This document shows positions 381 to 30,329 of a DNA stretch of 32,000 bases, in pieces. This DNA is from Nitrosopumilus sp. GTDB lineage: Archaea > Thermoproteota > Nitrososphaeria > Nitrososphaerales > Nitrosopumilaceae. Each line of letters starts with the position of its first letter. Position 1 is the first letter of the stretch. The translations under genes were made by a program, and so were the position numbers. The stretch is taken from assembly GCA_965205675.1 (NCBI GenBank), contig OZ242186.1, forward strand, positions 1,273,533-1,305,532. Reading direction: 5' to 3'. Below the pieces are notes generated by a model, which saw nothing but the letters and a program-made list of their open reading frames with translations, ran no database searches and had not been told where the DNA came from.

Positions 381-440
381 ATTCCTTCTCATTCCTTCTC
401 ATTCCTTCTCATTCCTTCTCATTCCTTCTCATTCCTTCTA
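381..440. repeat. Tandem repeat ATTCCTTCTC x6 (last unit ends in A)
   Basis: Six head-to-tail 10-bp units read directly from the sequence. They are intergenic, ~200 bp upstream of the mod start. Confidence 0.95.
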
Positions 441-455
441 TTATGATGGTATCAA

Positions 456-470
456 GGGCAGTACCTGCCC
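456..470. repeat. Inverted repeat GGGCAG-TAC-CTGCCC
   Basis: Perfect 6-bp arms with a 3-nt spacer, between the 10-bp array and the mod promoter region. It could be an operator or a small hairpin. Confidence 0.5.
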
Positions 471-614
471 ATGAATGTGTCAAAGACCCTAGAGATACAA
501 CTCTTAAAACACCCCTCTAAAACAAAACCCGAATCTCAAGAAAACAAAAATTATCATTTACTTGCAAATCCTATACTTTTAGATTTGAGATTCCAAAGAA
601 TTCTCCAATTCTGC

Positions 615-624
615 ATATACAAAA
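615..624 (+). promoter_or_regulatory. TATA-like box ATATACAAAA upstream of mod
   Basis: Ends 19 nt before ATG 644. Same ATACAA core and spacing as the boxes upstream of other first genes in the window. Confidence 0.35.
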
Positions 625-643
625 TGATTTTGGATAGAACAAA

Positions 644-2581
644 ATGACTGTAAGAGTATCTAGAGAATCCTCCGATATCGTGAAAGGAAAAATTCAAATT
701 CTGAAACAAATAATTCCAGAATGTTTTACAGAAGGGACTCTCGATATTGAGAAATTAAAGAATACTGTTGGTCAAACCTTGGACTCTAATGATGAAAAAT
801 ATACTCTGAATTGGGCAGGACGTAACGATACTTTCAAAAATATACAAATACCTATAAGGGATACTCTTGTACCAAACAAAAACGAATCTGTGAAATTTGA
901 TGATACAGAAAATATTTTCATTGAAGGAGAGAATCTTGAAGTTTTAAAGTTATTACAAAGATCATATTTTGGTAAAATCAAAATGATTTACATTGACCCG
1001 CCATACAACACAGGAAAAGATCTTATCTATAAAGATAATTTTCATGAAGATATATCCGAATATTTGAAAGAAACAGGACAGTCAAAAGATGGAATAAAAT
1101 TAACTACAAATCCAGAAACATCTGGGCGTTTTCATTCGGATTGGATTTCTTCTATGTACGCACGATTGTTTATAGCTAGAGATTTACTGACAGATGATGG
1201 TGTGATTTTTGTATCGATTGACGATAAAGAAGTTCATAATTTAAAACTAATAATGAATGAAATCTTTGGCGAAGAAAATTTTATTACGAATATAATTTGG
1301 GAGGGTGGCTTGAAGAATGATTCAACATTTTTTTCAATTTCTCACGATCATATTTTATGCTATGTGAAAAATCAATCTTTATTAAAAAATAATAAAACAA
1401 AATGGAGGTTAGAGAAAAAAGGTATTGATTCAATATATGAGCAAGTAAAAAAATTAAATGAAAATAGTTCTAATCATCAAATACTCTCAAAAGAATTAAA
1501 GAAATGGTATGGGGAATTAGATAAAAACGATCCAGCGTGGAAACATAGACATTATGATGACATTGATGAAAACGGTGTTTTTTTTGGAGGTGATATATCT
1601 TGGCCGGGAAGCGGAGGGCCAAGATATGACGTAATTCATCCAAAAACAAGAAAACCAGTAAAAATTCCAAGATCGGGATGGAGATATTCTAAACAAGAAA
1701 AAATGAATCAGCAAATTAGAGATAATAAAATTCAATTTGGCATAGATGAAACTACTGTTCCAAAAATAAAACGATATTTGCATGAAACTGAAGGTCAAGT
1801 GTACCCAAGTGTAATCTATAAAGATAGACGTGCTGCAAAACAAACACTTGATAGATTATTTCATACAGACATATTTGATGATCCAAAAGACGTAAATGTT
1901 ATTAAAGATTTAATTCGTTTAATTACAGAACGCGATGACATCATCCTAGATTTCTTTGCGGGTTCTGGAACTACTGCACATGCAGTCATGGAATTAAATA
2001 AAGATGATGAAGGAAATAGAAAATTTATTTGTATTCAAATACCAGAAATAATAATTGATAAACCAAAAAACAAATCTACACGAGACTTCTTAAAACAAAT
2101 AAAAAAACCCATTAATATCGCTGAAATATGCAAAGAAAGAATAAGACGTGTCATCAAAAATATAGATCCAAACTCAGATTTGGATCTGGGTTTTAAAGTA
2201 TTCAAACTTGCAAAATCCAATTACAAGATATGGGAAAATTATCTAGGTAAGGATGAAAAAGAATTGGAAAAACAAATTAAATTGTTTGAATCTCCTCTAA
2301 TAGAGAAATATACAGATGAAGATGTGATATACGAATGTATTATTAAAGAAGGATATAATTTCAACAGTAAAATTGAAAAATTAAAAATAAAATCAAATAC
2401 AGTATACAAAATTACGGATACGACTAATTCATTTTATATCTGTCTTGACAAAACAATTACAGATGATATTATCAAAGAAGTAAAGATAATTAATAATGAT
2501 ATCTTGATTTGTATTGATGCGGCACTTGATGATAGTCAAAAAACAAATCTGTCCAATCAGTGCAATCTAAAAACACTTTAG
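644..2581 (+). CDS. mod: Type III restriction-modification DNA methyltransferase (Mod; beta-class N6-adenine type)
   Basis: IYIDPPYNTG (motif IV) near aa 117. SDWISSMYARLFIARDLLTDDGVIFVSIDDKEVHNLKLIMNEIFGEENF is typical of Mod subunits. ILDFFAGSGTTAHAVMELN (motif I) lies near aa 440. Motif order IV then I, and res follows immediately downstream. Confidence 0.9.
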   Translation: MTVRVSRESSDIVKGKIQILKQIIPECFTEGTLDIEKLKNTVGQTLDSNDEKYTLNWAGRNDTFKNIQIPIRDTLVPNKNESVKFDDTENIFIEGENLEVLKLLQRSYFGKIKMIYIDPPYNTGKDLIYKDNFHEDISEYLKETGQSKDGIKLTTNPETSGRFHSDWISSMYARLFIARDLLTDDGVIFVSIDDKEVHNLKLIMNEIFGEENFITNIIWEGGLKNDSTFFSISHDHILCYVKNQSLLKNNKTKWRLEKKGIDSIYEQVKKLNENSSNHQILSKELKKWYGELDKNDPAWKHRHYDDIDENGVFFGGDISWPGSGGPRYDVIHPKTRKPVKIPRSGWRYSKQEKMNQQIRDNKIQFGIDETTVPKIKRYLHETEGQVYPSVIYKDRRAAKQTLDRLFHTDIFDDPKDVNVIKDLIRLITERDDIILDFFAGSGTTAHAVMELNKDDEGNRKFICIQIPEIIIDKPKNKSTRDFLKQIKKPINIAEICKERIRRVIKNIDPNSDLDLGFKVFKLAKSNYKIWENYLGKDEKELEKQIKLFESPLIEKYTDEDVIYECIIKEGYNFNSKIEKLKIKSNTVYKITDTTNSFYICLDKTITDDIIKEVKIINNDILICIDAALDDSQKTNLSNQCNLKTL

Positions 2582-2586
2582 GCTAT

Positions 2587-5169
2587 ATGATGGAACTGAA
2601 ATTTCAAAGCAATTTAGATTTTCAGTTAGATGCAATAAATTCTACTGTAGATATTTTTGAATCCCAAGAATTTACTCGAGAATCATTTGCCTTGATCTCA
2701 GAAAATGGGGTAATTCCAAACAAACTTGATTTGACACAAGAACAAATCTTAGCAAATATCAATAAAATCCAAAAAAGTAACAATATCGCACCAACCAATG
2801 AACTAAATGGAATGAACTTTTCAATAGAGATGGAAACCGGAACTGGTAAAACCTATGTGTATATCAGAACCGTTTTTGAATTATATCAAAATTATGGATT
2901 CAAAAAATTCATTGTGATTGTTCCTTCAATAGCAATAAAAGAAGGTGTTCTTAAAACCTTGGAAATTACCAAAAAACATCTTAAGGAAATCTATGCAAAT
3001 ACACCTTATAGTTACTACGAGTACGATTCAAAAAAAATCAACCTAATAAGACAATTTTCCAGATCAAATAAAATAGAAATTATGATTATGACAATTGATT
3101 CATTTAACAAAGACATCAACATAATGAACCAACAAAGAGACAATCTTTATGGAGAAAAACCAGTAGATCTTGTTAATAAAACTCAACCCATTCTGCTTTT
3201 GGATGAACCGCAAAACATGGAAAGTGACACTGCCAAGCAGGCAATTTCTAATTTGAATCCTTTGTTCACCCTGAGGTATTCTGCAACTCATAAAAATTAT
3301 TACAATCTGATATATCGATTAACCCCAGTTGATGCTTATCAGAAAAACCTTGTAAAGAAGATTGATGTAATGTCTGTTCTCAAGGAAGGTGATTTTAACA
3401 ATGTTTTTATCCGTTGCGTCAAAATCATAGCAGAAAAGAAAGGAATTAAGACAAAACTGTTGCTAAATAAAAAACTAGTAAATGGGTACAAGGCGACAGA
3501 AATGATTCTAAAATATGGAGAATGTCTTGCTCAGAAAACACACAATTCAGAGTATGATGGATTTATAGTAACTGAAATCAACGCAAGACACAACTTTGTT
3601 AAATTTTCAAATGGTATTAAGATTGGATTAGGAGAAGAACAAGGAGGAGACAGAAAAGAACTCATGCACATGCAAATAGAGCACACAATTCAAGAGCATT
3701 TTGAAAAATTTCTTATATTAAAACCACTTGGAATCAAACCGCTTTCATTGTTTTTCGTAGATAGCGTTGATAATTATCTTGCAAGAGATGGATTCATCAG
3801 AAAATCATTTGAAAAGTCTTTTGAAAAACTCAAAAAACAATACCGCGACTTTGAGAATATCGATGCCAAAGATATTCACTCAGGTTACTTTTCAAAACTA
3901 AAATCCGAAAAAGGGATGCAACAAGACAAAGACACTTTTGATCTGATCATGAGAGATAAGGAACGATTACTGTCATTTGATGAACCTATACAGTTTATTT
4001 TTTCACACTCTGCACTGCGGGAAGGTTGGGATAATCCCAACGTGTTTAACATTTGTACTCTGAATCAAACTATTTCGGGAATCAAAAAACGACAAGAAAT
4101 TGGAAGGGGTATGAGATTGCCGGTAAATCAAGAAGGAGATCGTCTTTATGGCGATCAGAATATTTTGACTGTAATTGCAAATGAAAACTATGCAAATTAT
4201 GCATCAAGACTACAGACGGAGTATGAAGAAGATTATGGTGCAGGTAGTTCTCCTGATATTCATAATAGAAAAAAGCGAACCGTGCTAAAACTAAAGAAGG
4301 GATTCAAACTCAATCCGGAATTTCAAGAACTTTGGAGACGCGTCTCTAAAAAAACAAAATATGCCATAAAACTAGATACTGGAAAATTAATTGATTCGTG
4401 TGTTTCTGAGATAGAGTCAAGTGTATCAGTAGATTCAATTAACATCCACATTACAACAGCATCCCTGGCATTGTCTGAAAACCAATCTCATTACAAAGTA
4501 GAGACGGATGTTTTAGGTACTGAAAGACCCCCAATCAAAAAGGATTTCCCGATACCTGATATTATAGAGCAGTTAAGCGATGAAACAAAACTAACCCGTT
4601 CTACAATTGTAAATATTCTAACAAAAATCAACAACTTGAATCTTGTATTTGCAAACCCTCAGTCATTCTTACTATCTGTTTCTCATATCATTAAAGAAAA
4701 ACTAGCTGACTTTCTTGTAGATGGTGTACAATATTTGGAAGTAGATGATTATTACAAAATGGAATTATTTCAAGACATTCTTACTTATGAAGATACAATT
4801 ATTCCTGTGAAGCATTCAATTTATGACAAAATAGTCTGGGATTCAAAAATTGAAGAAAAATTTGCCAATGACCTAAATGAAATGAATAATATCAAGCTCT
4901 TCATAAAATTACCTAACTGGTTTGTAATTGATACTCCCATTGGGAACTATAATCCTGATTGGGCAGTTGTCATAGAGGATGTTGATTCGCACAGAAGATC
5001 TAGAGAGAGATTGTATTTTGTAACTGAAACCAAGGCAATTCCAAATCTTAATGAATTAAGACCTAATGAAAAGAAAAAGATATCATGTGGAAAAAAACAC
5101 TTTGGAAAAATCAATGTTACATATCATGTTGCCACCAGTGTTGATAAATTACTGCAAAAACTTGCTTGA
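2587..5169 (+). CDS. res: Type III restriction enzyme Res subunit (SF2 helicase plus C-terminal PD-(D/E)xK nuclease)
   Basis: METGTGKTY (helicase motif I), LLLDEPQNM (motif II), SALREGWDNPNVF (motif VI-like), and C-terminal NPDWAV...FVTETK nuclease motif. ATG 2587 lies just after the mod stop. The track start GTG 2560 would overlap mod by 22 nt. Confidence 0.9.
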   Translation: MMELKFQSNLDFQLDAINSTVDIFESQEFTRESFALISENGVIPNKLDLTQEQILANINKIQKSNNIAPTNELNGMNFSIEMETGTGKTYVYIRTVFELYQNYGFKKFIVIVPSIAIKEGVLKTLEITKKHLKEIYANTPYSYYEYDSKKINLIRQFSRSNKIEIMIMTIDSFNKDINIMNQQRDNLYGEKPVDLVNKTQPILLLDEPQNMESDTAKQAISNLNPLFTLRYSATHKNYYNLIYRLTPVDAYQKNLVKKIDVMSVLKEGDFNNVFIRCVKIIAEKKGIKTKLLLNKKLVNGYKATEMILKYGECLAQKTHNSEYDGFIVTEINARHNFVKFSNGIKIGLGEEQGGDRKELMHMQIEHTIQEHFEKFLILKPLGIKPLSLFFVDSVDNYLARDGFIRKSFEKSFEKLKKQYRDFENIDAKDIHSGYFSKLKSEKGMQQDKDTFDLIMRDKERLLSFDEPIQFIFSHSALREGWDNPNVFNICTLNQTISGIKKRQEIGRGMRLPVNQEGDRLYGDQNILTVIANENYANYASRLQTEYEEDYGAGSSPDIHNRKKRTVLKLKKGFKLNPEFQELWRRVSKKTKYAIKLDTGKLIDSCVSEIESSVSVDSINIHITTASLALSENQSHYKVETDVLGTERPPIKKDFPIPDIIEQLSDETKLTRSTIVNILTKINNLNLVFANPQSFLLSVSHIIKEKLADFLVDGVQYLEVDDYYKMELFQDILTYEDTIIPVKHSIYDKIVWDSKIEEKFANDLNEMNNIKLFIKLPNWFVIDTPIGNYNPDWAVVIEDVDSHRRSRERLYFVTETKAIPNLNELRPNEKKKISCGKKHFGKINVTYHVATSVDKLLQKLA

Positions 5170-5640: not shown

Positions 5641-5789
5641 ACTGGAAATTCCACATCATTTGATATGCCAAGAGACATGATATGCGCTCTGAGAACTTTG
5701 AGATGGGATATCCAAAAAGAACATGCAAGAACATCAAAAAACTTTTTGGCATATGATTTCTTTGCAACCTTACAGGTAAGGGACTTTGG

Positions 5790-5799
5790 TTTATACATT
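5790..5799 (+). promoter_or_regulatory. TATA-like box TTTATACATT
   Basis: Ends 19 nt before ATG 5819. This favours ATG 5819 over the track's TTG 5786, which lies just upstream of the box (5790-5799). Confidence 0.35.
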
Positions 5800-5818
5800 G
5801 AATGAACCAAAAGGCTCC

Positions 5819-8653
5819 ATGCCATACAATACAAAGTCAATTCGCAAAAGACCGGTAAAGTCATTTTATTCCATGACTAATCCCAACATCCGCAAAAACT
5901 CCAAGGTATATCATATGCTAAAGCACGGTCCATTCCCTGAGAGTTTCTCATATCTTGTAAATGATGGCAAAATAACCAAGGAAGGAAGATGGCTGATGCT
6001 TGCATGTGATATGGGACTGTCGTTTGCAGAACTGTGTGTGCTTGTGTATATCGTCAGGTATTGTACCGGTACAATTTCACGCCAGATGATTCATGATTTT
6101 TTTGTGGGCGTGATGCCCTTGCAACGTGTCGTTAATACCTTATCCAAACTAAAGAGTGCAAAATATGTAAACGCTGATGCAACTTCTCTGGCAGTTACAG
6201 ATAAAACAAAATCTTTGGTAGACTCTCACAAGATAGAGTTTCAGCAACTGCACCTGTATGTTGAGACATTAACAAAATCAAAAAAGACTAATGTTCCAAT
6301 GGTAAAGGACGCCCCTCGCAAAAACTTTGAAGGAATAACAAACAGATCATGCATCCGCAAAAACTCCAAGGTGTATCATATGCTAAAGCACGGTCCATTC
6401 CCTGAGAGTTTCTCATATCTTGTAAATGATGGCAAAATAACCAAGGAAGGAAGATGGCTGATGCTTGCATGTGACATGGGACTGTCATTTGCAGAACTGT
6501 GTGTGCTCGTGTATATCGTCAGGTATTGTACCGGTACAATTTCACGCCAGATGATTCATGATTTTTTTGTGGGTGTGATGCCATTGCAAAGAGTTGTAGA
6601 CATACTCTCCAAACTAAAGAGTGCAAAATATGTAAACGCTGATGCGACTTCTCTGGCAGTTACAGATAAAACAAAATCTTTGGTAGACTCTCACAAGATA
6701 GAGTTTCAGCAACTGCACCTGTATGTTGAGACATTAACAAAATCAAAAAAGACTAATGTTCCAATGGTAAAGGATACTCCTCGCAAAAACTTTGAAGGAA
6801 TAACAAACAGATCATGCATCCGCAAAAACTCCAAGGTATATCATATGCTAAAGCACGGTCCATTCCCTGAGAGTTTCTCATATCTTGTAAATGATGGCAA
6901 AATAACCAAGGAAGGAAGATGGCTGCTGCTTGCATGTGACATGGGACTGTCATTTGCAGAGCTGTGTGTGCTCGTGTATATCGTCAGGTATTGTACCGGT
7001 ACAATTTTACGCCAGATGATTCATGATTTTTTTGTGGGTGTGATGCCATTGCAAAGAGTTGTAGACATACTCTCCAAACTAAAGAGTGCAAAATATGTAA
7101 ACGCTGATGCGACTTCTCTGGCAGTTACAGATAAAACAAAATCTTTGGTAGACTCTCACAAGATAGAGTTTCAGCAACTGCACCTGTATGTTGAGACATT
7201 AACAAAATCAAAAAAGACTAATGTTCCAATGGTAAAGGACGCCCCTCGCAAAAACTTTGAAGGAATAACAAACAGATCATGCATCCGCAAAAACTCCAAG
7301 GTATATCATATGCTAAAGCACGGTCCATTCCCTGAGAGTTTCTCATATCTTGTAAATGATGGTAAAATAACCAAGGAAGGTCGGTGGCTGCTGCTTGCAT
7401 GTGACATGGGACTGTCATTTGCAGAACTGTGTGTGCTTGTGTATATCGTCAGGTATTGTACCGGTACAATTTCACGCCAGATGATTCATGATTTTTTTGT
7501 AGGCGTGATGCCCTTGCAACGTGTCGTTAATACCTTATCCAAACTAAAGAGTGCAAAATATGTAAACGCCGATGCGACTTCTCTGGCAGTTACAGATAAA
7601 ACAAAATCTTTGGTAGACTCTCACAAGATAGAGTTTCAGCAACTGCACCTGTATGTTGAGACATTAAAAAAATCAAAAAAGACTAATGTTCCAATGGTAA
7701 AGGACGCCCCTCGCAAAAACTTTGAAGGAATAACAAACAGATCATGCATCCGCAAAAACTCCAAGGTATATCATATGCTAAAGCACGGTCCATTCCCTGA
7801 GAGTTTCTCATATCTTGTAAATGATGGCAAAATAACCAAGGAAGGAAGATGGCTGATGCTTGCATGTGACATGGGACTGTCATTTGCAGAACTGTGTGTG
7901 CTTGTGTATATCGTCAGGTATTGTACCGGTACAATTTCACGCCAGATGATTCATGATTTTTTTGTGGGTGTGATGCCATTGCAAAGAGTTGTAGACATAC
8001 TCTCCAAACTAAAGAGTGCAAAATATGTAAACGCTGATGCGACTTCTCTGGCAGTTACGGGCAAAACTAGAATATTGATAGATTCACAACAATCAGATCT
8101 TCTGAAATTGTATCAGTATGTTGAGACATTAAAAAAATCAAAAAAGAATAATGTTCAAATGGTAAAGGATACTCCTCGCAAAAACTTTGAAGGAATAACA
8201 AACAACTCGTACATCCGCAAAAACTCCAAGGTGTATCATATGCTAAAGCACGGTCCATTCCCTGAGAGTTTCTCATATCTTGTAAATGATGGCAAAATAA
8301 CCAAGGAAGGAAGATGGCTGCTGCTTGCATGTGATATGGGACTGTCATTTGCAGAACTGTGTGTGCTTGGATACCTGGTTATGTTGCATCGCAGTTGGCT
8401 AAAAGACCCAGGTTCCATGTCGTGGATGCATAGACCATTGGTGTATACTTCGTTTGACGAGTTTCTTGGTTTTTGGTCAGTTCAAAAATTCTTTGCAAAG
8501 TTCAAAAAGATGGGATTCATCAAGGTGCACACACCGGGACTTCGCGCAGTGAAATTTAACCCGGGATTCATAGATGCATTCATCAAATCCCATACACGAG
8601 AACTTGACGAGCTTGAGGTATACGTAAAGGAACATCTTGAACTGCCTTTGTGA
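5819..8653 (+). CDS. Repeat protein: five near-identical 155-aa winged-helix-like modules plus a sixth, diverged C-terminal module
   Basis: Single uninterrupted ORF across the 465-bp array. Each unit carries LSFAELCVLVYIVRYCTGTISRQMIHDFFVGVMPLQRVV(N/D)(T/I)LSKLKSAKYVNAD...LAVTDKTKSLV, a MarR-like helix-turn-helix plus wing pattern (fold inferred by eye). Confidence 0.75.
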   Translation: MPYNTKSIRKRPVKSFYSMTNPNIRKNSKVYHMLKHGPFPESFSYLVNDGKITKEGRWLMLACDMGLSFAELCVLVYIVRYCTGTISRQMIHDFFVGVMPLQRVVNTLSKLKSAKYVNADATSLAVTDKTKSLVDSHKIEFQQLHLYVETLTKSKKTNVPMVKDAPRKNFEGITNRSCIRKNSKVYHMLKHGPFPESFSYLVNDGKITKEGRWLMLACDMGLSFAELCVLVYIVRYCTGTISRQMIHDFFVGVMPLQRVVDILSKLKSAKYVNADATSLAVTDKTKSLVDSHKIEFQQLHLYVETLTKSKKTNVPMVKDTPRKNFEGITNRSCIRKNSKVYHMLKHGPFPESFSYLVNDGKITKEGRWLLLACDMGLSFAELCVLVYIVRYCTGTILRQMIHDFFVGVMPLQRVVDILSKLKSAKYVNADATSLAVTDKTKSLVDSHKIEFQQLHLYVETLTKSKKTNVPMVKDAPRKNFEGITNRSCIRKNSKVYHMLKHGPFPESFSYLVNDGKITKEGRWLLLACDMGLSFAELCVLVYIVRYCTGTISRQMIHDFFVGVMPLQRVVNTLSKLKSAKYVNADATSLAVTDKTKSLVDSHKIEFQQLHLYVETLKKSKKTNVPMVKDAPRKNFEGITNRSCIRKNSKVYHMLKHGPFPESFSYLVNDGKITKEGRWLMLACDMGLSFAELCVLVYIVRYCTGTISRQMIHDFFVGVMPLQRVVDILSKLKSAKYVNADATSLAVTGKTRILIDSQQSDLLKLYQYVETLKKSKKNNVQMVKDTPRKNFEGITNNSYIRKNSKVYHMLKHGPFPESFSYLVNDGKITKEGRWLLLACDMGLSFAELCVLGYLVMLHRSWLKDPGSMSWMHRPLVYTSFDEFLGFWSVQKFFAKFKKMGFIKVHTPGLRAVKFNPGFIDAFIKSHTRELDELEVYVKEHLELPL
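5888..8369. repeat. 465-bp tandem repeat, 5.34 copies
   Basis: ATCCGCAAAAACTCCAAGGT recurs at 5888, 6353, 6818, 7283, 7748 and 8213, an exact 465-bp period. Identity with the previous copy is lost at 8370. Confidence 0.95.
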
Positions 8654-8690: not shown

Positions 8691-9557
8691 ATGAGCAAGC
8701 ACTCCTTCGTATGGTATAGAATAAGGCAGTTTGCCTCAGCTGAGAAAATAGATGATGTTCCGAGCCAGGACCTGTTGGTATTATGTGGCTCCATATCTGA
8801 TATTGTCATTGCAATTTTCCGTCTTGATGAGTCTGGAACATCCATATACCTACGGGTTCCTGATTTCTGCGCCAGTCAGGTCGAATCAATCATCTCCTTT
8901 GGTAAGGAAAAACAAGAGTATCCAGTATGCACAAAGATACAATCACTAGTAGAGCTCAAACTTAGAAAAAAATCCGTGTACCCACTTGTATCGAATCCTG
9001 CTGACATGCACCATAACGTCTTTTCGCTGTTCTCATCTGCACCGCAGGGAGCAATATTTCTAAAGCTATCGCATACTGATTCCAAAAAAACGAAAAGGCA
9101 GTACGATTCCATAAAACGCAGATATGAAAAACAAAAAGATGATGCAAAAAACACAAACTGGCACGAGTCTGCATGCAAGGCAAAGGCTGATTGCCGTCGA
9201 TTCTTTCATGCACAGTTATTCTTTGGAACCCTCACCCCGTCAGACATTGATGACTTTGAGCGGATTCTGCCCTGTGTCGGACGGGATATAGAGCCAAACG
9301 GATTGGTGCGAAAAAAATCAATCTTGTACAATTTAAAACATCCGAGAAGAGCACTTGATTTTTTGGAAAAGATACTGCTTGAAAAATCAAAAAAATCCGG
9401 AATGGTACTCTCCGAAAATGACATTGTACCTTTTGTTAGATTCCCTGAAAATGCAGACAGATTACAGATGGAGCCTGCCTCGTCTGAGACATTCTCATCA
9501 GGTCTCGCTGCAAATGTTCCTGACCCTCAAAAAGAATTTGAGGATGGTCTGTCATGA
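8691..9557 (+). CDS. Hypothetical protein
   Basis: 288-aa ORF with no hydrophobic segments. Its stop overlaps the next start (ATGA at 9554-9557). No motif recognised. Confidence 0.6.
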   Translation: MSKHSFVWYRIRQFASAEKIDDVPSQDLLVLCGSISDIVIAIFRLDESGTSIYLRVPDFCASQVESIISFGKEKQEYPVCTKIQSLVELKLRKKSVYPLVSNPADMHHNVFSLFSSAPQGAIFLKLSHTDSKKTKRQYDSIKRRYEKQKDDAKNTNWHESACKAKADCRRFFHAQLFFGTLTPSDIDDFERILPCVGRDIEPNGLVRKKSILYNLKHPRRALDFLEKILLEKSKKSGMVLSENDIVPFVRFPENADRLQMEPASSETFSSGLAANVPDPQKEFEDGLS

Positions 9558-10978: not shown

Positions 10979-11300
10979 TTGTCAGGACCACAAAAATAGA
11001 ACTGTTTTTACGTGATCTGTTTTTCTTCAAGTAAACCTTTGATTTGTGTATGAAATCTCTTAAAAATTAAAATAGATCCAAGTAAGAGATAAAACGATTG
11101 GCTCAGATTATGGTTTGCAATATCATCATCTCTAAATGATAAGAGCGTCACGGCTTCATCGTTGCCAGTCATTTTTACTTGATTCATACAAAACATTGGC
11201 TTTAAATATAAGTTTGTTCTAATAATAGTAGAATGGTTTTATCTTCAAACTATGAAATCTCCAACTGGATCTTTTTTATCAGTAAATGTGTTAATTGAAC

Positions 11301-11326
11301 ACGTTTATTAAATGCGTTTATTAGAT
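11301..11326. repeat. 13-bp unit x2 (ACGTTTATTAAAT / GCGTTTATTAGAT)
   Basis: CGTTTATTA recurs at 11302 and 11315. Confidence 0.7.
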
Positions 11327-11332
11327 AAGTTC

Positions 11333-11362
11333 GTAATCGGTGGCCTCCACGCCACCGATTAC
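11333..11362. repeat. Perfect hairpin GTAATCGGTGGC-CTCCAC-GCCACCGATTAC
   Basis: 12-bp perfect stem with a 6-nt loop. It is GC-rich within an AT-rich intergenic region. Confidence 0.9.
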
Positions 11363-11365
11363 AAA

Positions 11366-11414
11366 CTGATTCTACTGACTGATTCTACTGACTGATTCTA
11401 CTGACTGATTCTAC
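11366..11414. repeat. Tandem repeat CTGATTCTACTGA, 3.8 copies
   Basis: Perfect 13-bp units at 11366, 11379 and 11392, and a partial unit at 11405. The array starts 3 nt after the hairpin and lies ~70 nt upstream of the TFB-like start. Confidence 0.95.
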
Positions 11415-15478: not shown

Positions 15479-15772
15479 TTGGAGATTTACATAATCATAT
15501 TTTTGGTTATACTGCTTGCCTTTTTGAGTCTGTTCCTGACACACTATGTGAAAAAATCAAGAAAGTACGAGACAAAGGCATCATTTTATTCTGGTGCATA
15601 CATGCGGCTACGCGTATGGAATATCGATGATGCCCTGAAAAGATCCACAAGATCAAAGGAGACGCGCTTTTGGGGTGATATTATACTGAGAGGCGATACA
15701 GAACTTGCAACTCGGGGAGAGCCCGGGGAGACAATACTGGATGAGCTTTTTGGTCCATCACAGAAAACATAA
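15479..15772 (+). CDS. Small membrane protein (single N-terminal TM)
   Basis: TTG start preceded by TTTTAAGTAAAAA ~23 nt upstream. N-terminus MEIYIIIFLVILLAFLSLFLTHYV followed by a charged tail. Confidence 0.4.
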   Translation: MEIYIIIFLVILLAFLSLFLTHYVKKSRKYETKASFYSGAYMRLRVWNIDDALKRSTRSKETRFWGDIILRGDTELATRGEPGETILDELFGPSQKT

Positions 15773-24398: not shown

Positions 24399-24431
24399 CT
24401 CTGATGATTTTATCGTTATTTTGCATCAGAG
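24399..24431. terminator. Hairpin CTCTGATG-(17 nt T-rich loop)-CATCAGAG between convergent genes
   Basis: 8-bp perfect stem. The loop ATTTTATCGTTATTTTG provides T-tracts on the + strand. Sits 24 nt after the stop of 21640-24375 and overlaps the 3' end of the - strand SWIM ORF. Confidence 0.3.
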
Positions 24432-24796
24432 GAACCGGCAGGTTCGCGATGCCTCGTTAACTTGCCAGTTCCAAATCCAATCTTGATTATTGTAGTGGAA
24501 CTGCATTTAGAGCATATTTGAGGTTGCTCAGTTTTCTCAATTTTGTTCTGAATTGAGATATTTTCTTTTAGCATGATACAGCTCCGAATGTGCTTACAGT
24601 GTTTGTTGTCTTTAGTTCTCAACCTAAAATGAAAATCATCACATTGGCAAACCCATACATCTGTATCTCTTAGCTTCTCAACACTGTATCTCTTATCTGA
24701 GTTTTGAGATTCTACAATAAAATGATTGTTTGTAACTTTTCTAATTGAGTTTGTCTTTGAATAGATCTGAGTTGCTTTTTGCTCTCTTTGATTCAT
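24416..24796 (-). CDS. SWIM zinc-finger protein with a C-terminal CxxC half-ribbon
   Basis: VWVCQCDDFHFRLRTKDNKHCKHI fits the SWIM C-x-C-x(n)-C-x-H pattern. C-terminal QICSKCSSTTIIKIGFGTGK resembles the N-terminal zinc ribbon of some transposase ORFs but has no partner CxxC. Confidence 0.55.
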   Translation of the reverse strand: MNQREQKATQIYSKTNSIRKVTNNHFIVESQNSDKRYSVEKLRDTDVWVCQCDDFHFRLRTKDNKHCKHIRSCIMLKENISIQNKIEKTEQPQICSKCSSTTIIKIGFGTGKLTRHREPAGSSDAK

Positions 24797-24879
24797 ACAT
24801 AATATTATCCGTATGCTTATTTATTGCTTACTGTTAACCGATCGCTTATTATAGATGAGATATAATTAAAAAACATAAT

Positions 24880-25053
24880 TTGACACGTTGGAAAAAAGAT
24901 GAGAGTGATTTTTTAGTAAGATTATCAGATGATGGAAGACACAGTACAATTTGCAGAATACCAAAACCGATCTTGCAATTCCTAAATAATCCAGAAGCTA
25001 TTAGGTTTGTAATTGAGGGTAAGAAGATCACAGTCAAAAGAGGTTTGAAATAG
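24880..25053 (+). CDS. AbrB/SpoVT-like small DNA-binding protein (57 aa, TTG start); absent from the ORF track
   Basis: My own translation: (M)TRWKKDESDFLVRLSDDGRHSTICRIPKPILQFLNNPEAIRFVIEGKKITVKRGLK*. The RIPKPI...I-x-F-x-I-x-G-x-K-I-x-V pattern is typical of AbrB/MazE swapped-hairpin domains. Its TAG shares a base with the methyltransferase GTG (TAGTG). Confidence 0.45.
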   Translation: MTRWKKDESDFLVRLSDDGRHSTICRIPKPILQFLNNPEAIRFVIEGKKITVKRGLK

Positions 25054-26636
25054 TGCTTACAAAATGTGCTGAAGAAATTCCAAAATCATATACTGGTATC
25101 TATTCTATGCACAAGTATTGGTCAAAAAAACCATTTAATGTAATTGACAGGTATATTCAAACATACACAAAACCAGATGATATAGTATTAGACCCATTTC
25201 TAGGATCTGGAATTAGCAGTATAGAATCTATTTTTTCGAATAGACGAACAGTTGGTATTGATATTAATCCCATGTCCACATTCATAACAAAGCAAATGCT
25301 GGAAAATATTGATCCTAAAGTCATAGATGAGGAATTCCTAAAACTACAAGATGTCCTACGTAAGCAAATCGATAGCCTATACGAAATACAAGTAGATGAT
25401 ATGTCATTTACAGGCTCACATTTTATTTACAAAAATGAACAACTAGTGGAGATATGGTACAAAGATAACAAAACAAAAAAAATAGTCGATATGACAAAAC
25501 CGACCAATGTCAAAACAATGAAAGATTTTACTTATGAAAACATCAAGACTGTTTTGCCTACAAAAAAATTAGTCAAGAACTCAAGAATAAATGCCAAGGA
25601 AGGAATGTCAGTTTATGATTTGTTTACTCCTAGAAACGCATTGGCATTGTCTATGTTGTTAGAGGAAATAAACAAGATTCAAGATATCAAATTGAGGGAT
25701 TTTTTCAGATTTTGTTTTACAGCCTGTTCTGGTCAGGCTAGCAAAATGGTATTTGTCATTAATAAGCGTAAAAAAATGAAAGGTGAGCATACTGTATCAG
25801 ACAGAAAGGAAGTTGGAAGCTGGGTAATAGGATATTGGATTCCTAAGGAACATTTTGAAATAAATGCCTGGAATTGTTTTGAAAACAGATACAAGAGAAT
25901 TCTAAAAGCTAAAAAAGAATTTTTTCAATCAAATCCAAATGTGAGATATGTAAGAAATTTCAAAAGTCTGGAAAATAATCAAGGTAACATATTATTAATT
26001 AATGACAGTTGTTACACAGCACTAAAGACAATACCTGATAATTCAGTTGACTATGTCATAACAGATCCGCCTCATGGTGATAGATTGCCATATTTAGAAT
26101 TGAGTATGATGTGGAATGATTGGCTAGATTTTGATGTAAACATGGATAAGGAGCTTGTTGTAAGTGATGCAAAAGCGAGAGATAAGACAGTTACAGAATA
26201 CATGATATTGTTAGAAAAAATACTAGTTGAGATTAACAGGGTTTTAAAAAATGGCAAATATTTTACATTGATGTTTAATAACTATGATCAACAAGTGTGG
26301 GGGAAACTACAAGAAATTCTGTTTGGTTTGGATTTGGAATTATCAGATGTTAGTACGATAGGTTATTCTGCATCATCAGTGATTCAAGATAGCAGAAAAG
26401 GTGGATTGAAAACAGATTTTATATTTACTTTTAAGAAAAATACCTCAATCAGAAATAAGAAATTCGGCATTGCAGATCAAAATATGGTTGATAGTCTGAT
26501 CTCTGATTATCTAAACAAAAACAAAGATCATTCTTTATATAAAATACTAAATTATGTCATAATCTATCTCATTTCCAATAGATTAATTTTTGACATAAAA
26601 TCAGTTATATCATCAATATCATTGAAATTTCAATGA
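25053..26636 (+). CDS. DNA amino-methyltransferase (N6-adenine or N4-cytosine), probably Type II
   Basis: MHKYWSKKP...IVLDPFLGSGISSIE (AdoMet motif I) near aa 48 and VDYVITDPPHGD (motif IV, DPPH) near aa 338. Motif order I then IV, the reverse of the Mod at 644. Confidence 0.85.
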   Translation: MLTKCAEEIPKSYTGIYSMHKYWSKKPFNVIDRYIQTYTKPDDIVLDPFLGSGISSIESIFSNRRTVGIDINPMSTFITKQMLENIDPKVIDEEFLKLQDVLRKQIDSLYEIQVDDMSFTGSHFIYKNEQLVEIWYKDNKTKKIVDMTKPTNVKTMKDFTYENIKTVLPTKKLVKNSRINAKEGMSVYDLFTPRNALALSMLLEEINKIQDIKLRDFFRFCFTACSGQASKMVFVINKRKKMKGEHTVSDRKEVGSWVIGYWIPKEHFEINAWNCFENRYKRILKAKKEFFQSNPNVRYVRNFKSLENNQGNILLINDSCYTALKTIPDNSVDYVITDPPHGDRLPYLELSMMWNDWLDFDVNMDKELVVSDAKARDKTVTEYMILLEKILVEINRVLKNGKYFTLMFNNYDQQVWGKLQEILFGLDLELSDVSTIGYSASSVIQDSRKGGLKTDFIFTFKKNTSIRNKKFGIADQNMVDSLISDYLNKNKDHSLYKILNYVIIYLISNRLIFDIKSVISSISLKFQ

Positions 26637-27725
26637 TTGACATCAAAAGGTGATTTTAAGGAATTGCAGAATCTTTATGATTCTGGTGATTTTACAAAGA
26701 TATTGGATTATTCCAATGGGATGTATTTTCTAAAACTACGTTCAATGTCAAGACCCACTCTTCTTAAAAAACTGGCAGAACAACAAGCCATAACAATTTT
26801 TCCCAAACCAAAACTTTTTGATATTTTTAATCAAAATATTCCATTAACAGCATTAGACAAATTCATCAGAAAAGAAGCTGTTGACGAACTAAAAAACATA
26901 GCAGATGAAAAAGAAATTCTATACACAGAATTATTCAAGCTTGATGTTTTGGATTGGGGAGGATTATATCAGAATGGACTAGAAAAAACCATAGTCAACA
27001 ACTATGTCAAGAAAATCAAAAATTATGACGAGCTTAATCAAAAAATCACTAATGAATTACATGATAGTATGTCGGGATATGTGAAAAGTTCTTGGTATAA
27101 TCATTGGTCAACCATCTTAATTGAGAATATGTTTCAAGAACACAAAAATATAATTCCTGCAATAGGAAAAGTGAAAAATTTGGATTTCTTTTGGAATGAC
27201 ATTCCACTTGATCTGAAAGTAACATACTTTCCAAAAGAATTCTTAAACGATAAAAGAAAGGAACTTGGTTTGAGAACTGAGTTATCATCCCTGAAGAAAT
27301 TTGCCAAAGAAAGTAAAATATGTTATGACAAAAATGGAAATGACCGACAAATTTTTACAGAGATATATAGGAAATTAAGTGAATCATCAAAACCAGAATA
27401 TCTGAAATTCATAAAGGAATTAAAACAGAAAAGCACAGAGATAATCAATAATACAATAAAAGATCCTGTATCATTAGCACAATGGCTGTATGAAAAACAA
27501 AGTGAAAGGAGATTTGACAGGGTTTATCGATTTTATCTTATTTTGATAGATTCAACTAATTTAGAAGATAGTTGGAAATTGAAGCGTAACAGAGATTTGG
27601 TTCCAAACGGAATCAAGTCATTTCTCTCTAAAGATCCTAAAAAAGAAATTAAAGATATTAAGTTTGGATGGAAAGATAAAGAATATGACACAAAATGCTT
27701 TGTGTTGTTTATCGTTAAATCATAA
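26637..27725 (+). CDS. Putative cognate restriction endonuclease
   Basis: TTG start directly abuts the methyltransferase TGA. LDFFWNDIPLDLKVT could be a PD-(D/E)xK core. The assignment rests mainly on position. Confidence 0.45.
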   Translation: MTSKGDFKELQNLYDSGDFTKILDYSNGMYFLKLRSMSRPTLLKKLAEQQAITIFPKPKLFDIFNQNIPLTALDKFIRKEAVDELKNIADEKEILYTELFKLDVLDWGGLYQNGLEKTIVNNYVKKIKNYDELNQKITNELHDSMSGYVKSSWYNHWSTILIENMFQEHKNIIPAIGKVKNLDFFWNDIPLDLKVTYFPKEFLNDKRKELGLRTELSSLKKFAKESKICYDKNGNDRQIFTEIYRKLSESSKPEYLKFIKELKQKSTEIINNTIKDPVSLAQWLYEKQSERRFDRVYRFYLILIDSTNLEDSWKLKRNRDLVPNGIKSFLSKDPKKEIKDIKFGWKDKEYDTKCFVLFIVKS

Positions 27726-27727
27726 CT

Positions 27728-27790
27728 CCCTAACGTAACAGCTCAAACCCCTAATGTAACACCACTTTGAAAAACCCCTAAGATGGAACA
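27728..27790. repeat. Three copies of CCCTAA-N(1-3)-G(T/G)(A)ACA
   Basis: CCCTAACGTAACA at 27728, CCCTAATGTAACA at 27749 and CCCTAAGATGGAACA at 27776, immediately after the endonuclease stop. Confidence 0.5.
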
Positions 27791-27985
27791 GTGTAAAAAT
27801 TCACTTTCTACACTCATACAAAATCACCTGAATTGCACCGTACATACCCTTTATAATACATTTTCAAAATTTAAGTCAATCTATAATTTCAGGTATAATT
27901 AATATCGAATATTTGGCAAAGGAATTTGATGTCATCTCTGCATCTGTAAGTGGGAGAAGAGATCTGATTTCTGATAATTTTCTGC

Positions 27986-27995
27986 CTTTAAATTT
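27986..27995 (+). promoter_or_regulatory. TATA-like box CTTTAAATTT upstream of the peptidase gene
   Basis: 20 nt separate it from TTG 28016. There is no SD motif in between. Confidence 0.25.
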
Positions 27996-28015
27996 GATTT
28001 TACCTGAATGGTTCA

Positions 28016-28657
28016 TTGTATCTGGAACTTGCCCTGCTTGCACTGCTCGTATTTTATGCATTTTTGGATATTCGCACAAGGCATGTGCGCACCTATTTTT
28101 TCGTGTTTCCGTTTGTAGCCCTACTTGCATTGAAAATAATTACCGGTTCAATTGATGCGACAATGCTGATAATGTTTGCAATGCAGGCAGGATTTGTCAT
28201 GGCAGCATACCTCCTCCGGCTTTTTGCCTCAGCTGACCTGCTGGGTCTGTTAGTTGTGACCTTTGCAGTTCCCTTTGTAGGACCATTTCCTGCAGTACTT
28301 GTACTGGCGCTGACAATAATATTCCAGTCAAACGGAATCATGCTGTCAAATCTGTCATACAATCTGGCGGACTTGTACAATAACCGACAACTGTTCTCCG
28401 ATGTCCCACAGATGCGCACAAAAAAGACTGCAAGGAGAATCTACTGGTCGTTTCTTGCACGCCGTCTGCGAGATGCTGACAAACACGTCCTCCCTGCACA
28501 AAGAATCCACAAAGGTTCACTTGAGCTTGCAGTCTCTAGGAAAAATACCGACACACTCTCAAATGCACAATATGTGTATTCTGCACATCCGGGTCTTGCA
28601 TACATTGCATGCGCATACGCATTTTTGCTTTTGGTGGCAAGCCCGTTTCTGATATGA
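28016..28657 (+). CDS. A24-family prepilin/preflagellin peptidase (FlaK/PibD-like)
   Basis: Polytopic membrane protein carrying the two expected aspartate motifs: YAFLDIRTRHV near the N-terminus and FASADLLGLLV (a GxGD-type variant). Only a TTG start is available, since the frame opens at 27998. Confidence 0.65.
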   Translation: MYLELALLALLVFYAFLDIRTRHVRTYFFVFPFVALLALKIITGSIDATMLIMFAMQAGFVMAAYLLRLFASADLLGLLVVTFAVPFVGPFPAVLVLALTIIFQSNGIMLSNLSYNLADLYNNRQLFSDVPQMRTKKTARRIYWSFLARRLRDADKHVLPAQRIHKGSLELAVSRKNTDTLSNAQYVYSAHPGLAYIACAYAFLLLVASPFLI

Positions 28658-28661
28658 TGGT

Positions 28662-30329
28662 GTGTTGATGATGCAATTCTCCAAGGTATTCAAAAATTTG
28701 AGTCAAAAAATCGCAAGTACTCTAAAAAAAGATGCAAAGAAAAAAAACATTCCAGAAAAAAACATTCCAGAAAAAAACATTCCAGAGAAGAGCATTCCAG
28801 AGAAGAGCATTCCAGAGAAGAAGAACTCAAAAAAAGATACAAAAAAAGATACACCGCAAGAAAAATCCCTCTCGTATTCCTCTGTTAGACCTGCAAAGTA
28901 CCTTATACAATACAAGGTAGGTGATGATGTAGTAGTTACAATATCTGAGGACATGCAGTACTGCGTATATGAGCCACAGTTCTCAGATGCTGCATCAAAA
29001 TCCGCATATGACAGTATAATGTCATACAAGAGATTTACAAGGTATGATGGCAACGCGGTCTTTTCTGAGTTGTCCGTAGAGGAGATAATGAGTGAGGCAG
29101 AATCCGCTGCAACAGAACTTGGTCTTCTCGAAGAGTTTCTGAAAAATTACCGAACGTTTCAATACTATATCCGGCGCGATATCTTCGGGTTTGATGTTCT
29201 AAATGTACTGCTGCAAGACGAATCAAATCTTGAGGACATCACATGTTCAAATTACAATGATACGGTAGGTGTGGTTCACCGCAAATATCTCAGCTGGGGA
29301 GTCATGAGAACCACGATAAAATTTGACTCAAAAAAGCATATGGAGTCGCTGATGGAGAAGATGGCAAACCGCGCTTACAAACATCTCTCTGATGCCACAC
29401 CCATGGTTGACCTGCAGCTGGATAAAAAATACAGAATGTCGCTTGTAAAATCTGACGTGATATCGCCGCTGTCCCCTGCGCTATCCATACGAATAAAATC
29501 CCCTGACCCGATCACGATAAAAAATCTGCTTGACTCAAACACCATATCTCACAATACAGTTGCTGCAATCTGGACTCTTTTGGATGTACGTGGTACGGGG
29601 CTTATTATTGGCGGCACAGGTTCAGGCAAAACCTCTACCCTTGGCGCCTTACTGCTGCTGATAAAAAAGACTGAGAAGATAATAACAATCGAGGACACTG
29701 GGGAAATTCAGATACCTCACACAGACTGGCTGCCATTAATGATTGATGCCCCCGTATCAACTGCCGGTTATTTTAAAAAATTTCAGGCAATTCTCAACAC
29801 TTCGCTGCGACAGAGACCATACATGATCTCAGTGGGAGAGGTGCGAGGCGAATCAACAAAGATGCTCTTTGATGCAATATCTACAGGCCACTCCTCGATG
29901 TCATCCTTTCATGCATATGGTGCGTCAGGTGCAATCAATCGTATCATAGGGGAAATCGGTGTACCTGCCGGTTCTTTTACTGATCTTGGATTCATTTTAT
30001 CAATGGGGGAAATAATAACAAAGCAGGGAATACTTGAGAGGCGATGCCTCTCCTTTGATGAGATAAGCTCAGATGGTCATGAGGTCTTTCTCAACAACCT
30101 TGGAGTGTACAATGCAGATACTGATTCTTTTGATAACAACTCGATTCCTTTTCTGTGTGAGAATTCCAAGAGGCTGCAGGCAGCAGTAGCCCGAGACGCA
30201 TCAACTGAGATGGCATCAGACTTTGCACTACGAGTTGACCTGTTGCGGGAATGTCAAAAGCGGGCAGTCACCCAACACGAGACAGCAGAGATTCTATCCA
30301 AATATTATGAAAAGAAATATCAGCGATAG
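28662..30329 (+). CDS. Type II/IV secretion-family ATPase (FlaI/PilB/VirB11-like)
   Basis: LIIGGTGSGKTSTLGALL (Walker A), ITIEDTGEIQIP (Asp box), MISVGEVRGES (Walker B) and STGHSSMSSFHA (His box). The start could be GTG 28662 or ATG 28668/28671. Confidence 0.9.
   Translation: MLMMQFSKVFKNLSQKIASTLKKDAKKKNIPEKNIPEKNIPEKSIPEKSIPEKKNSKKDTKKDTPQEKSLSYSSVRPAKYLIQYKVGDDVVVTISEDMQYCVYEPQFSDAASKSAYDSIMSYKRFTRYDGNAVFSELSVEEIMSEAESAATELGLLEEFLKNYRTFQYYIRRDIFGFDVLNVLLQDESNLEDITCSNYNDTVGVVHRKYLSWGVMRTTIKFDSKKHMESLMEKMANRAYKHLSDATPMVDLQLDKKYRMSLVKSDVISPLSPALSIRIKSPDPITIKNLLDSNTISHNTVAAIWTLLDVRGTGLIIGGTGSGKTSTLGALLLLIKKTEKIITIEDTGEIQIPHTDWLPLMIDAPVSTAGYFKKFQAILNTSLRQRPYMISVGEVRGESTKMLFDAISTGHSSMSSFHAYGASGAINRIIGEIGVPAGSFTDLGFILSMGEIITKQGILERRCLSFDEISSDGHEVFLNNLGVYNADTDSFDNNSIPFLCENSKRLQAAVARDASTEMASDFALRVDLLRECQKRAVTQHETAEILSKYYEKKYQR
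28746..28820. repeat. 15-bp tandem repeat x5 (NIPEK x3, SIPEK x2), followed by a 12-bp x2 repeat (KKDT) at 28830-28853
   Basis: AACATTCCAGAAAAA x2, AACATTCCAGAGAAG x1 and AGCATTCCAGAGAAG x2, all in frame at the extreme N-terminus of the ATPase. Confidence 0.9.

Follow-up and report, generated by a model that had tools for sequence, protein, structure and literature searches.

The closest described systems

The subject of this report is a 32,000-bp stretch of DNA (hereafter the window) from Nitrosopumilus sp. contig OZ242186.1, positions 1,273,533 to 1,305,532, which contains numerous tandem arrays and a cluster of pilus- and secretion-type genes. The described systems that resemble it fall on both sides of this combination. 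Thaumarchaeal integrative-conjugative elements (ICEs) encode FlaI and PilT ATPases, TadC, a prepilin peptidase and pilins (Krupovic et al. 2019, PMC6563490). Most of the described elements have a VirB4/VirD4 ATPase pair, and the placement of a TFIIB gene directly before parB seems to be peculiar to them (PMC6563490). VirB6/VirB3-like membrane proteins also belong to their gene set, and they are delimited by integrase and att sites, the latter often in a tRNA gene. In archaeal type IV pilus loci, TFIIB homologues are the commonest regulators (Makarova, Koonin and Albers 2016, PMC4858521). The pilins of these systems bear class III signal peptides, which an A24 peptidase processes. Borgs, the giant linear extrachromosomal elements of Methanoperedens, are known for their perfect tandem repeats, which constitute 0.62% of their sequence compared to at most 0.01% in their hosts (Schoelmerich et al. 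2023, PMC9879509). Borg genomes have long terminal inverted repeats and two replichores, in each of which the genes are on one strand.

The window probably lies within a chromosome-borne, horizontally acquired, ICE-like pilus/secretion island of a Nitrosopumilus-like archaeon. The island appears to have two kinds of repeats that differ in age and origin: short arrays of the slippage type, which are recent, and a gene amplification that is old and has been under selection. Similarity to the ICEs lies in the gene content and similarity to Borgs in the repeats.

Chromosomal setting of the island

The proteins encoded by the window are carried on a single contig of 2,011,361 bp. Related loci were found from contigs bearing homologues of the window's secretion ATPase and are denoted here by L numbers. 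The closest relative found is the chromosome of a Nitrosopumilus sp. metagenome-assembled genome (OZ253567.1, locus L001), which is about 75% identical in DNA to positions 27978-32000 of the window. The peptidase-like, ATPase and platform proteins are 57-74% identical to their L001 orthologues. Other relatives are on contigs of 1.9-3.2 Mb.

The base composition of the window is uneven. The GC fraction is about 0.28-0.35 in the first 5.8 kb, 0.36-0.51 between 5.8 and 24.8 kb, 0.30 between 25 and 28 kb, and 0.42-0.44 between 28 and 32 kb. Only the three-gene pilus core is present in L001, where it has a GC of 0.42 amid DNA with a GC of 0.28-0.30. In L009, the island (GC 0.39-0.48) follows the genes for PolB1, an XPD-like helicase and PriL, which have a GC of about 0.50. 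The island, with a GC of about 0.42, thus deviates from the GC of the flanking host DNA in opposite senses, the flanks being at 0.30 in L001 and 0.50 in L009.

Relatives of the island are extremely rare. An exhaustive HMMER search of 1.84 billion proteins recovered 18 representatives of the family to which the repeat unit of the window's 955-aa protein belongs (see below). Two scans of metagenome contigs with the ATPase as a query gave no relative, and word-indexed homologue searches with the ParB-like and 955-aa proteins gave nothing beyond the query itself. Horizontal acquisition is suggested because the GC contrasts in L001 and L009 are accompanied by this rarity and patchy distribution. 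The earlier note on this DNA proposed that it was not core chromosome but derived from an archaeal element. Composition, patchiness and inserted restriction-modification (RM) cassettes support that view to the extent that the window appears to be an accessory, horizontally acquired archaeal gene island rather than ordinary core chromosome. The further suggestion that the element is extrachromosomal does not hold, because the source contig is 2 Mb long and core replication genes adjoin the island in L009. Megablast of 22.5 kb of the window against plasmid and phage collections gave no match, and neither did three protein queries and two DNA patterns in IMG/VR. The window contains no tRNA and no Rfam family.

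A provirus was considered and dropped, as there were no matches to PHROG structural or packaging families and no relatives in IMG/VR. The PolB, helicase and PriL genes beside the L009 island were at one time taken for an element-encoded replication module. This interpretation was withdrawn because the PolB strongly matches the cellular archaeal PolB1 equivalog NF004417 (584 bits over 511 residues). Positions 7338-9107 of L009, immediately before the first conserved genes of the island, encode an SNF2-family helicase. Its matches are to ZorD-like models and, below the cut-off, to the NCBIfam model 'pilus expression-regulating Snf2 family helicase' (2e-45).

The co-oriented pilus cluster

Five of the related loci (L005, L006, L007, L008 and L009) share 9-12 genes with the 5.8-32 kb part of the window, as judged by blastp, in a conserved order and on one strand. 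The shared order begins with genes for proteins of 187-204 and ~290 residues, a secreted SNase-like protein of ~450-490 residues, a TFIIB-like protein of ~240 residues and a ParB-N-like protein of ~320 residues. These are followed by a pilin-like protein of ~160 residues, a secreted protein of 341-702 residues, a pilin-like protein of ~870-900 residues and a polytopic membrane protein of ~210 residues. The end of the cluster is comprised of the ATPase, a TadC/UpsF-type platform, small pilin-like proteins, two proteins of ~1000 residues and two membrane proteins. By blastp, the window has this set as well, but the 199- and 616-aa genes, accompanied by two genes specific to the window, precede the 911-aa gene, and an RM cassette separates the 911-aa gene from the peptidase-like gene. 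The following components of the cluster are found in the window, in addition to the repeat-bearing genes described below:

8691-9557, + strand: conserved 288-aa island protein; orthologues in L005, L007 and L009 at 36-54% identity
9554-10978, + strand: 474-aa SNase-like protein; N-terminal signal or transmembrane segment, nuclease-like domain at residues ~262-373, C-terminal transmembrane anchor
11484-12164, + strand: TFIIB-like protein; CxxC...CxxC zinc ribbon and one cyclin-fold region
12148-13122, + strand: ParB-N-like protein (weak assignment), overlapping the end of the TFIIB-like gene; orthologues in relatives
13135-13620, + strand: conserved 161-aa pilin-like protein; N-terminal hydrophobic segment; orthologues in relatives
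15705-16556, + strand: 283-aa membrane protein; hint of a C-terminal winged helix (HTH_27, 0.004; phrog_2440, 2e-5)
16931-19370, + strand: two conserved membrane proteins of 199 and 616 aa; orthologues in relatives, where they are downstream of the pilus core
19456-21396, + strand: 646-aa orphan protein; no Walker A motif
21640-24375, + strand: 911-aa large pilin-like or surface protein; N-terminal hydrophobic helix
28016-28657, + strand: polytopic membrane protein of 213 aa, encoded where a prepilin peptidase would be expected (weak assignment); orthologues at 39-57% identity
28662-30329, + strand: FlaI/UpsE-type secretion ATPase (Pfam T2SSE, 6.5e-29); lysine-rich N-terminal tail with the arrays at 28741-28821 and 28828-28853
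30190-32000, + strand: TadC/UpsF/FlaJ-type membrane platform (NCBIfam UpsF, 1.7e-31), 73% identical to that of L001; the frame opens at 30190 and runs past the end of the window

The assignments decrease in strength from the T2SSE ATPase through the UpsF-type platform, the SNase, TFIIB and ParB-N to the A24 peptidase. The ATPase and platform genes are adjacent and overlap, and the platform protein also matches BasF and ArlJ. The 474-aa protein matches phrog_452 (4e-11), EcnA (1.5e-6) and a thermonuclease in the Protein Data Bank (PDB; 2e-4), and has orthologues in the relatives. When a five-sequence profile of the TFIIB-like protein was compared with the PDB, the top eight matches were all TFIIB (best E 1.2e-4); the NCBIfam TFIIB model is matched at 0.004. 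The single-sequence AlphaFold 2 model of the ParB-N-like protein is unusable, with a predicted local distance difference test score (pLDDT) of 34. In L009, the ParB-like gene is split into two overlapping open reading frames (ORFs) of 179 and 159 aa (18159-19134), which jointly align to the whole window protein. The split could represent a frameshift, a pseudogene or a sequencing error.

Pilin-like proteins are recognized by their N-terminal hydrophobic segments, which are present in the 161- and 911-aa proteins and in 145-aa proteins of the relatives. No pilin or A24 family reaches significance in family scans of the window and relative proteins. Orthologues of the 911-aa protein precede the peptidase-like gene in L002, L003, L005, L006 and, weakly, in L004. 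The 199-aa protein (16931-17530) has a faint match to Pfam PrgI, a VirB3-like family, at an E of 0.04 with most of the profile covered; this likeness, if real, would link the island to type IV secretion. Profiles of the 199- and 616-aa proteins found no match in the PDB. The 646-aa protein had no match in any of the searches. Neither it nor the 283-aa protein has a counterpart at the equivalent position in the relatives, and the latter has a weak, 26% identical homologue upstream of the unit gene in L009. Most proteins of the higher-GC block have no family assignment. The same is true of most proteins of the conserved cluster, which represent dark matter in an important lineage.

On its + strand, the window has about 19 supported genes. 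The only non-overlapping ORFs on the - strand are at 24416-24796 (126 aa) and 11008-11196 (62 aa), neither of which has homologues in the related loci. The near-uniform gene orientation described earlier is therefore confirmed, but its interpretation as a replichore or Borg hallmark is not supported. Because all of the relatives share the co-oriented gene order, the strand bias is an operon-like trait of the cluster family.

The gene content shares many features with that of the thaumarchaeal ICEs. A TFIIB-like gene is directly upstream of, and overlaps, the tentatively assigned ParB-like gene. The FlaI-type ATPase and the TadC-type membrane protein are in common, as are the RM cargo, the rearrangement of gene order between relatives and the host lineage, and the peptidase-like and pilin-like proteins are putative shared components. 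The cluster probably encodes a machinery for secretion or DNA transfer that resembles a type IV pilus, as has been reported for these elements. Two proteins of the window, the conserved, secreted SNase-like nuclease and the small winged-helix-like protein, are not listed in PMC6563490. It also has a heavy load of tandem repeats, whereas the term 'tandem repeat' is absent from the main text of that paper. The island is ICE-like rather than an ICE, because no VirB4/VirD4 pair, integrase or att site is present in the 32-kb window or in the visible ~150 kb of the relatives. The ATPases recognized in the window are limited to the T2SSE ATPase and the type III Res protein, and in L007 a scan for Walker A motifs found one in the T2SSE ATPase alone. 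Pfam and NCBIfam scans of the window proteins gave no match to integrase families. VirB4/VirD4-like genes could lie beyond the window, as may the element boundaries.

Archaeal type IV pilus loci of the Ups/Aap type (PMC4858521) are also similar, having in common with the window the core of secretion ATPase and TadC/UpsF-type platform and the pilin-like genes. The window differs from them in that this core is coupled to ParB-like, nuclease and winged-helix-like genes, in that its GC departs from that of the host, and in its patchy distribution.

Tandem arrays

Arrays were detected with Tandem Repeats Finder (TRF) and by a separate exact-repeat scan:

380-439, + strand: perfect array, 10 bp x6.0 (CATTCCTTCT); intergenic, ~205 bp ahead of the start codon of the type III mod gene
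5887-8369, + strand: imperfect array, 465 bp x5.3, 95% matches; in the 955-aa ORF
11283-11323, + strand: weak array, described earlier as 13 bp x2 at 11301; 71% matches (TRF)
11365-11414, + strand: perfect array, 13 bp x3.85; intergenic, with partial units on its flanks
14280-14562, + strand: near-perfect array, 15 bp x~19, with 10 + 2 + 6-7 units of three variants and 98% matches; encodes DDAFV x12, then DDTFV x7
14628-14679, + strand: perfect array, 24 bp x2.2; in the 461-aa gene, DEPSHHAD x2
28741-28821, + strand: near-perfect array, 15 bp x5, with 3 + 2 units and 93% matches; NIPEK x3, SIPEK x2
28828-28853, + strand: perfect array, 12 bp x2.2; in the ATPase gene, KKDT x2

The earlier note had described perfect arrays at these sites. 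Arrays do exist at every one of them, and four are perfect. Two more are nearly perfect, since their unit variants stand in contiguous blocks. The copies of the 465-bp unit differ from each other, and the array at 11301 is imperfect. The unit lengths of the genic arrays (465, 15, 24, 15 and 12 bp) are all multiples of three, as had been stated, while the intergenic units of 10 and 13 bp are not. The encoded peptides were said to be rich in D, E, K, N, P, S and T. This applies loosely to the short arrays (DDAFV/DDTFV, DEPSHHAD, N/SIPEK and KKDT) but not to the 465-bp unit, the product of which is a folded domain (pLDDT 87).

None of 20 mononucleotide shuffles of the window contained an array, compared to nine arrays observed. 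With the criteria of the Borg paper (perfect, at least 50 nt and at least three units), four arrays account for 1.17% of the bases. When nine related loci were scanned in the same manner, they had 0-1 arrays per ~21 kb, so that the window is by far the richest.

The likeness to Borg repeats (PMC9879509) is extensive. In both cases, perfect head-to-tail arrays are found in spacers as well as in ORFs, where the reading frame is kept. The length of a genic unit is a multiple of three and that of an intergenic unit is not, each locus has a unit of its own, and the arrays have partial units on their flanks. Amino acid repeats affect segments that are secreted or of low complexity, a conserved gene is a recurrent hotspot, and the density is of the same order. 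The window differs in its host (Nitrososphaeria) and its context, a chromosomal island of tens of kb. Borg repeats are enriched in A on the coding strand, whereas most units of the window are not: the A fraction is 0.10-0.29 in four of the six short arrays, compared to the window mean of 0.32, and only the two arrays in the ATPase gene are A-rich (0.53 and 0.73). Furthermore, the related islands are mostly repeat-poor, and the largest array (465 bp) is of old date, with diverged copies that each encode a folded domain.

Practically no weight can be given to the possibility that the window derives from a Borg or from a giant linear extrachromosomal element related to Borgs. Its repeats, intergenic and in frame in genes, exceed the Borg average in density, its genes are nearly uniform in orientation and a secreted protein contains amino acid repeats, all of which would fit. 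However, the nearest relatives belong to a Nitrosopumilus chromosome and to other contigs of chromosome size rather than to Methanoperedens, the source contig has a length of 2.01 Mb, and the L009 island abuts cellular replication genes. The co-oriented cluster occurs also in relatives with few or no repeats, and the units of four of the six short arrays are not A-rich. Pfam, NCBIfam and PHROGs scans of the window proteins gave no match indicative of Borg backbone genes. The earlier note was right not to assign the window to Borgs, given the differences in host, context and composition. Repeat statistics of the Borg type, at about 1% of sequence, in a chromosomal island of an archaeon of the ammonia-oxidizer type mean that this signature is not diagnostic of Borgs.

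The 465-bp array and the six-unit protein

The longest array of the window has a different origin from the others. It is contained in a single ORF:

5786-8653, + strand: 955-aa ORF of six units fused in frame, containing the 465-bp x5.3 array; characterized by alignment to orthologues, HMMER, AlphaFold and the ratio of nonsynonymous to synonymous substitution rates (dN/dS)

By blastp, a 187-aa protein of L005, which has one copy of the unit, can be aligned to the 955-aa protein in six places. Nearly all of the 18 representatives of the unit family are proteins of 140-224 aa with one copy of the unit. P0123, a 332-aa protein of the L009 island, is the only member with two copies, and the window protein has six. 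The 465-bp copies differ pairwise at 7-52 of 465 nucleotides (1.5-11%), and the differences are distributed patchily. They are mostly synonymous, with a dN/dS of 0.06-0.5 between copies and a dS of up to 0.3. The amplification is therefore old, and each copy is under purifying selection. The array is thus an older, selected, in-frame sixfold fusion of a whole small gene, and it encodes folded domains, not a disordered low-complexity repeat.

The AlphaFold model of the unit, calculated from a 16-sequence alignment, is confident (pLDDT 86.8). Its best fold matches in the PDB are all winged-helix DNA binders (HsmR/MarR-type, ORC and TubR), but the matches are weak, with a best E of 0.03 and template modelling scores of ~0.4-0.5. 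The resemblance to a winged-helix DNA-binding protein is a lead, not a result. The array probably arose by amplification of an entire small gene of the putative DNA-binding type, giving a six-domain protein that was maintained by purifying selection. It is a clean case of tandem gene amplification yielding a multi-domain protein.

Lineage specificity of the short arrays

The short arrays are confined to narrow lineages. The NIPEK/SIPEK and KKDT repeats of the ATPase are absent from the 74% identical L001 orthologue and, more generally, from all 119 other homologues (120 in total), all of which have a variable, lysine-rich N-terminal tail. Two further arrays are in the gene of a secreted protein:

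13617-15002, + strand: 461-aa secreted protein with the arrays at 14280-14562 and 14628-14679; characterized by TRF, exact-repeat scan and comparison of orthologues

The protein consists of a conserved N-terminal domain of ~210 residues followed by an acidic repeat region. At the corresponding position, its orthologue in L008 has a perfect array of 24 bp x9.2 and an array of 87 bp x2.8, that in L009 has 63 bp x5.6, that in L007 has imperfect repeats of ~19 aa, and that in L005 has none. The 461-aa gene is a repeat hotspot with unrelated units in different genomes. In Borgs, a conserved locus has likewise been reported as a recurrent repeat hotspot (PMC9879509). With unrelated arrays in four genomes and none in a fifth, the gene offers a natural set for studying the origin of repeats.

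A further site of variation is found in the gene of a 933/943-aa secreted protein in L005 (14772-15332) and L006 (14763-15347). The islands are otherwise 95.5-98.5% identical, and here they carry a non-homologous cassette of ~580 bp, which in L006 holds a perfect 15-bp x5 array. The site looks like a hypervariable region.

The remaining 13-bp repeats are upstream of the TFIIB-like gene:

11283-11414, + strand: promoter-proximal repeat region, consisting of the imperfect 13-bp array (11283-11323), a hairpin (11333-11362) and the perfect 13-bp x3.85 array (11365-11414)

The spacer upstream of the TFIIB-like gene is 505 bp long in the window, compared to ~120 bp, free of repeats, in the relatives. 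The hairpin has a perfect 12-bp stem and a 6-nt loop, is GC-rich (folding z = -5.5), is unique in the window and lies directly beside the 13-bp x3.85 array. It could favour slippage by stalling replication, or it could serve as a protein-binding site. An iteron or centromere role for the 13-bp array is unsupported, as the equivalent spacer of the relatives has no repeats. The 62-aa ORF on the - strand (11008-11196) fills part of the long spacer; it may be a small divergent gene or spurious.

The short arrays appear to be recent, lineage-specific local expansions. This reading follows from the comparisons given above: arrays are absent from the shuffles and number 0-1 per 21 kb in the relatives, the ATPase repeat is unique, the 13-bp array is missing from the relatives' spacers, and the unit variants are arranged blockwise. 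The short arrays (10-24 bp) might arise by replication slippage or unequal recombination. The blockwise variants, the partial units on the flanks and the retention of the reading frame would be explained by stepwise events of this type combined with selection. Genic arrays would survive only in frame, and would accumulate in pre-existing low-complexity, fast-evolving segments, such as the stalk of the secreted protein, which is acidic, and the N-terminal tail of the ATPase, which is rich in lysine. Intergenic arrays lie in promoter-proximal DNA, where their copy number could tune expression. Variation of secreted and pilus-associated proteins by means of such repeats may be a general route in archaeal mobile elements.

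Slippage-prone in-frame arrays in the linkers of microbial surface proteins are characteristic of contingency loci and minisatellites, and phase-variable type III mod genes have a simple-sequence repeat in or next to them, the copy number of which varies and switches expression. The window has arrays of the former kind in common with contingency loci.

The earlier note suggested an active repeat-generating mechanism. For Borgs, it has been proposed that arrays are created by a dedicated machinery which the element encodes or which acts on it specifically. The density of the window, its perfect units and the partial units flanking its arrays are Borg-like, and the strong hairpin abuts one array; secondary structure has been suggested as a trigger of polymerase slippage (PMC9879509). 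Such a mechanism is nevertheless very unlikely here. Family scans found no polymerase or recombinase encoded in the window, the PolB near the L009 island is of the cellular type, no more than one array occurs in any related island, an A-rich seed signature is lacking, and unit variants in blocks are what stepwise slippage is expected to produce. It is even less probable that some or all of the arrays are assembly artefacts, that is, collapsed or expanded repeats, even though assemblies are known to go wrong at repeats (PMC9879509). The genic arrays all keep long ORFs open and in frame, the unit variants are ordered in blocks, the 465-bp copies have copy-specific, mostly synonymous differences, and independent assemblies of the relatives show arrays in the orthologues of the 461-aa gene.

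Several points weigh against the interpretation of the window as an ICE-like island with recent slippage-type arrays. The window was selected for its repeats, which is an ascertainment bias, and the enrichment may be host-wide and not specific to the island. In that case, repeat richness would be a genome-wide trait of the host, caused, for example, by a slippage-prone replisome or weak repair, and the island would be incidental. The array at 380-439 is in keeping with this, as it sits in a low-GC RM cassette outside the higher-GC island proper. The island relatives are far poorer in arrays, so that repeat load would track the genome and not the island family. Furthermore, positions 19590-20392 of L001, outside the pilus block, contain a complex array of 9-bp units (TGAGAACCA and variants) with higher-order periods of 77-351 bp, and so the chromosomes of Nitrosopumilus relatives also bear minisatellite-like genes. 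The hotspot in the 461-aa gene, on the other hand, recurs in four genomes and is a locus effect independent of the host. A host-wide trait is considered rather unlikely on balance. The remaining points concern the identity of the island and the origin of its arrays. The top PDB match of the ParB-N-like protein, ParB 4umk, has an E of only 0.14; Peptidase_A24 is matched only at an E of 0.62, and on the L001 orthologue; and all fold matches of the repeat unit lie no lower than the E of 0.03 given above. The VirB4/VirD4, integrase and att components of an ICE are missing from the DNA seen so far. Mobility and conjugation are inferred from composition and distribution only, and slippage is likewise inferred, not observed. 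With these points taken into account, a chromosome-borne, ICE-like island remains the probable interpretation.

A more far-reaching proposal can be made, although it is unlikely to be correct. The cluster may be an undescribed archaeal apparatus for DNA transfer or uptake on a mobile island, and may combine a type-IV-pilus core with a membrane-anchored secreted nuclease and TFIIB-like, ParB-like and small winged-helix proteins. Dense, perfect tandem repeats with a rapid turnover would then mark large mobile elements of archaea other than Borgs too, by convergence, and would diversify surface and secretion proteins. Here they would have given rise to the six-domain DNA-binding protein, which might recognize iterated DNA sites, such as the 10-bp or 13-bp arrays of the island itself.

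Restriction-modification cassettes

Two low-GC cassettes with RM genes are present in the window:

644-5169, + strand: type III RM cassette, Mod (644-2581) and Res (2560-5169), GC 0.28-0.34; identified by Pfam and by PADLOC (MTase_III 1e-184, REase_III 8e-235)
25053-27725, + strand: type II RM-like cassette, N6/N4 methyltransferase (25053-26636) and a 362-aa ORF (26637-27725), GC 0.30

The 362-aa ORF is a putative endonuclease with no match in family scans. Low-GC RM cassettes are found within the higher-GC island in the window (24800-27950), in L004 (6476-8932) and in L009 (14185-17132), where they have been inserted into the island. The slot directly upstream of the peptidase-like gene is occupied by the type II methyltransferase and the 362-aa ORF in the window and by an unrelated MmeI-type enzyme in L004, which suggests that it is an insertion hotspot for defence genes. 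No convincing flanking repeats were found around the cassette at 24.8-27.9 kb.

The window shares with phase-variable type III mod loci a simple-sequence array beside a type III mod gene. The 10-bp array differs in its position, ~205 bp upstream of mod and outside both the ORF and the core promoter. A change in the copy number of the 10-bp x6 array might tune or switch mod expression. The 10-bp period of this array corresponds to one helical turn.

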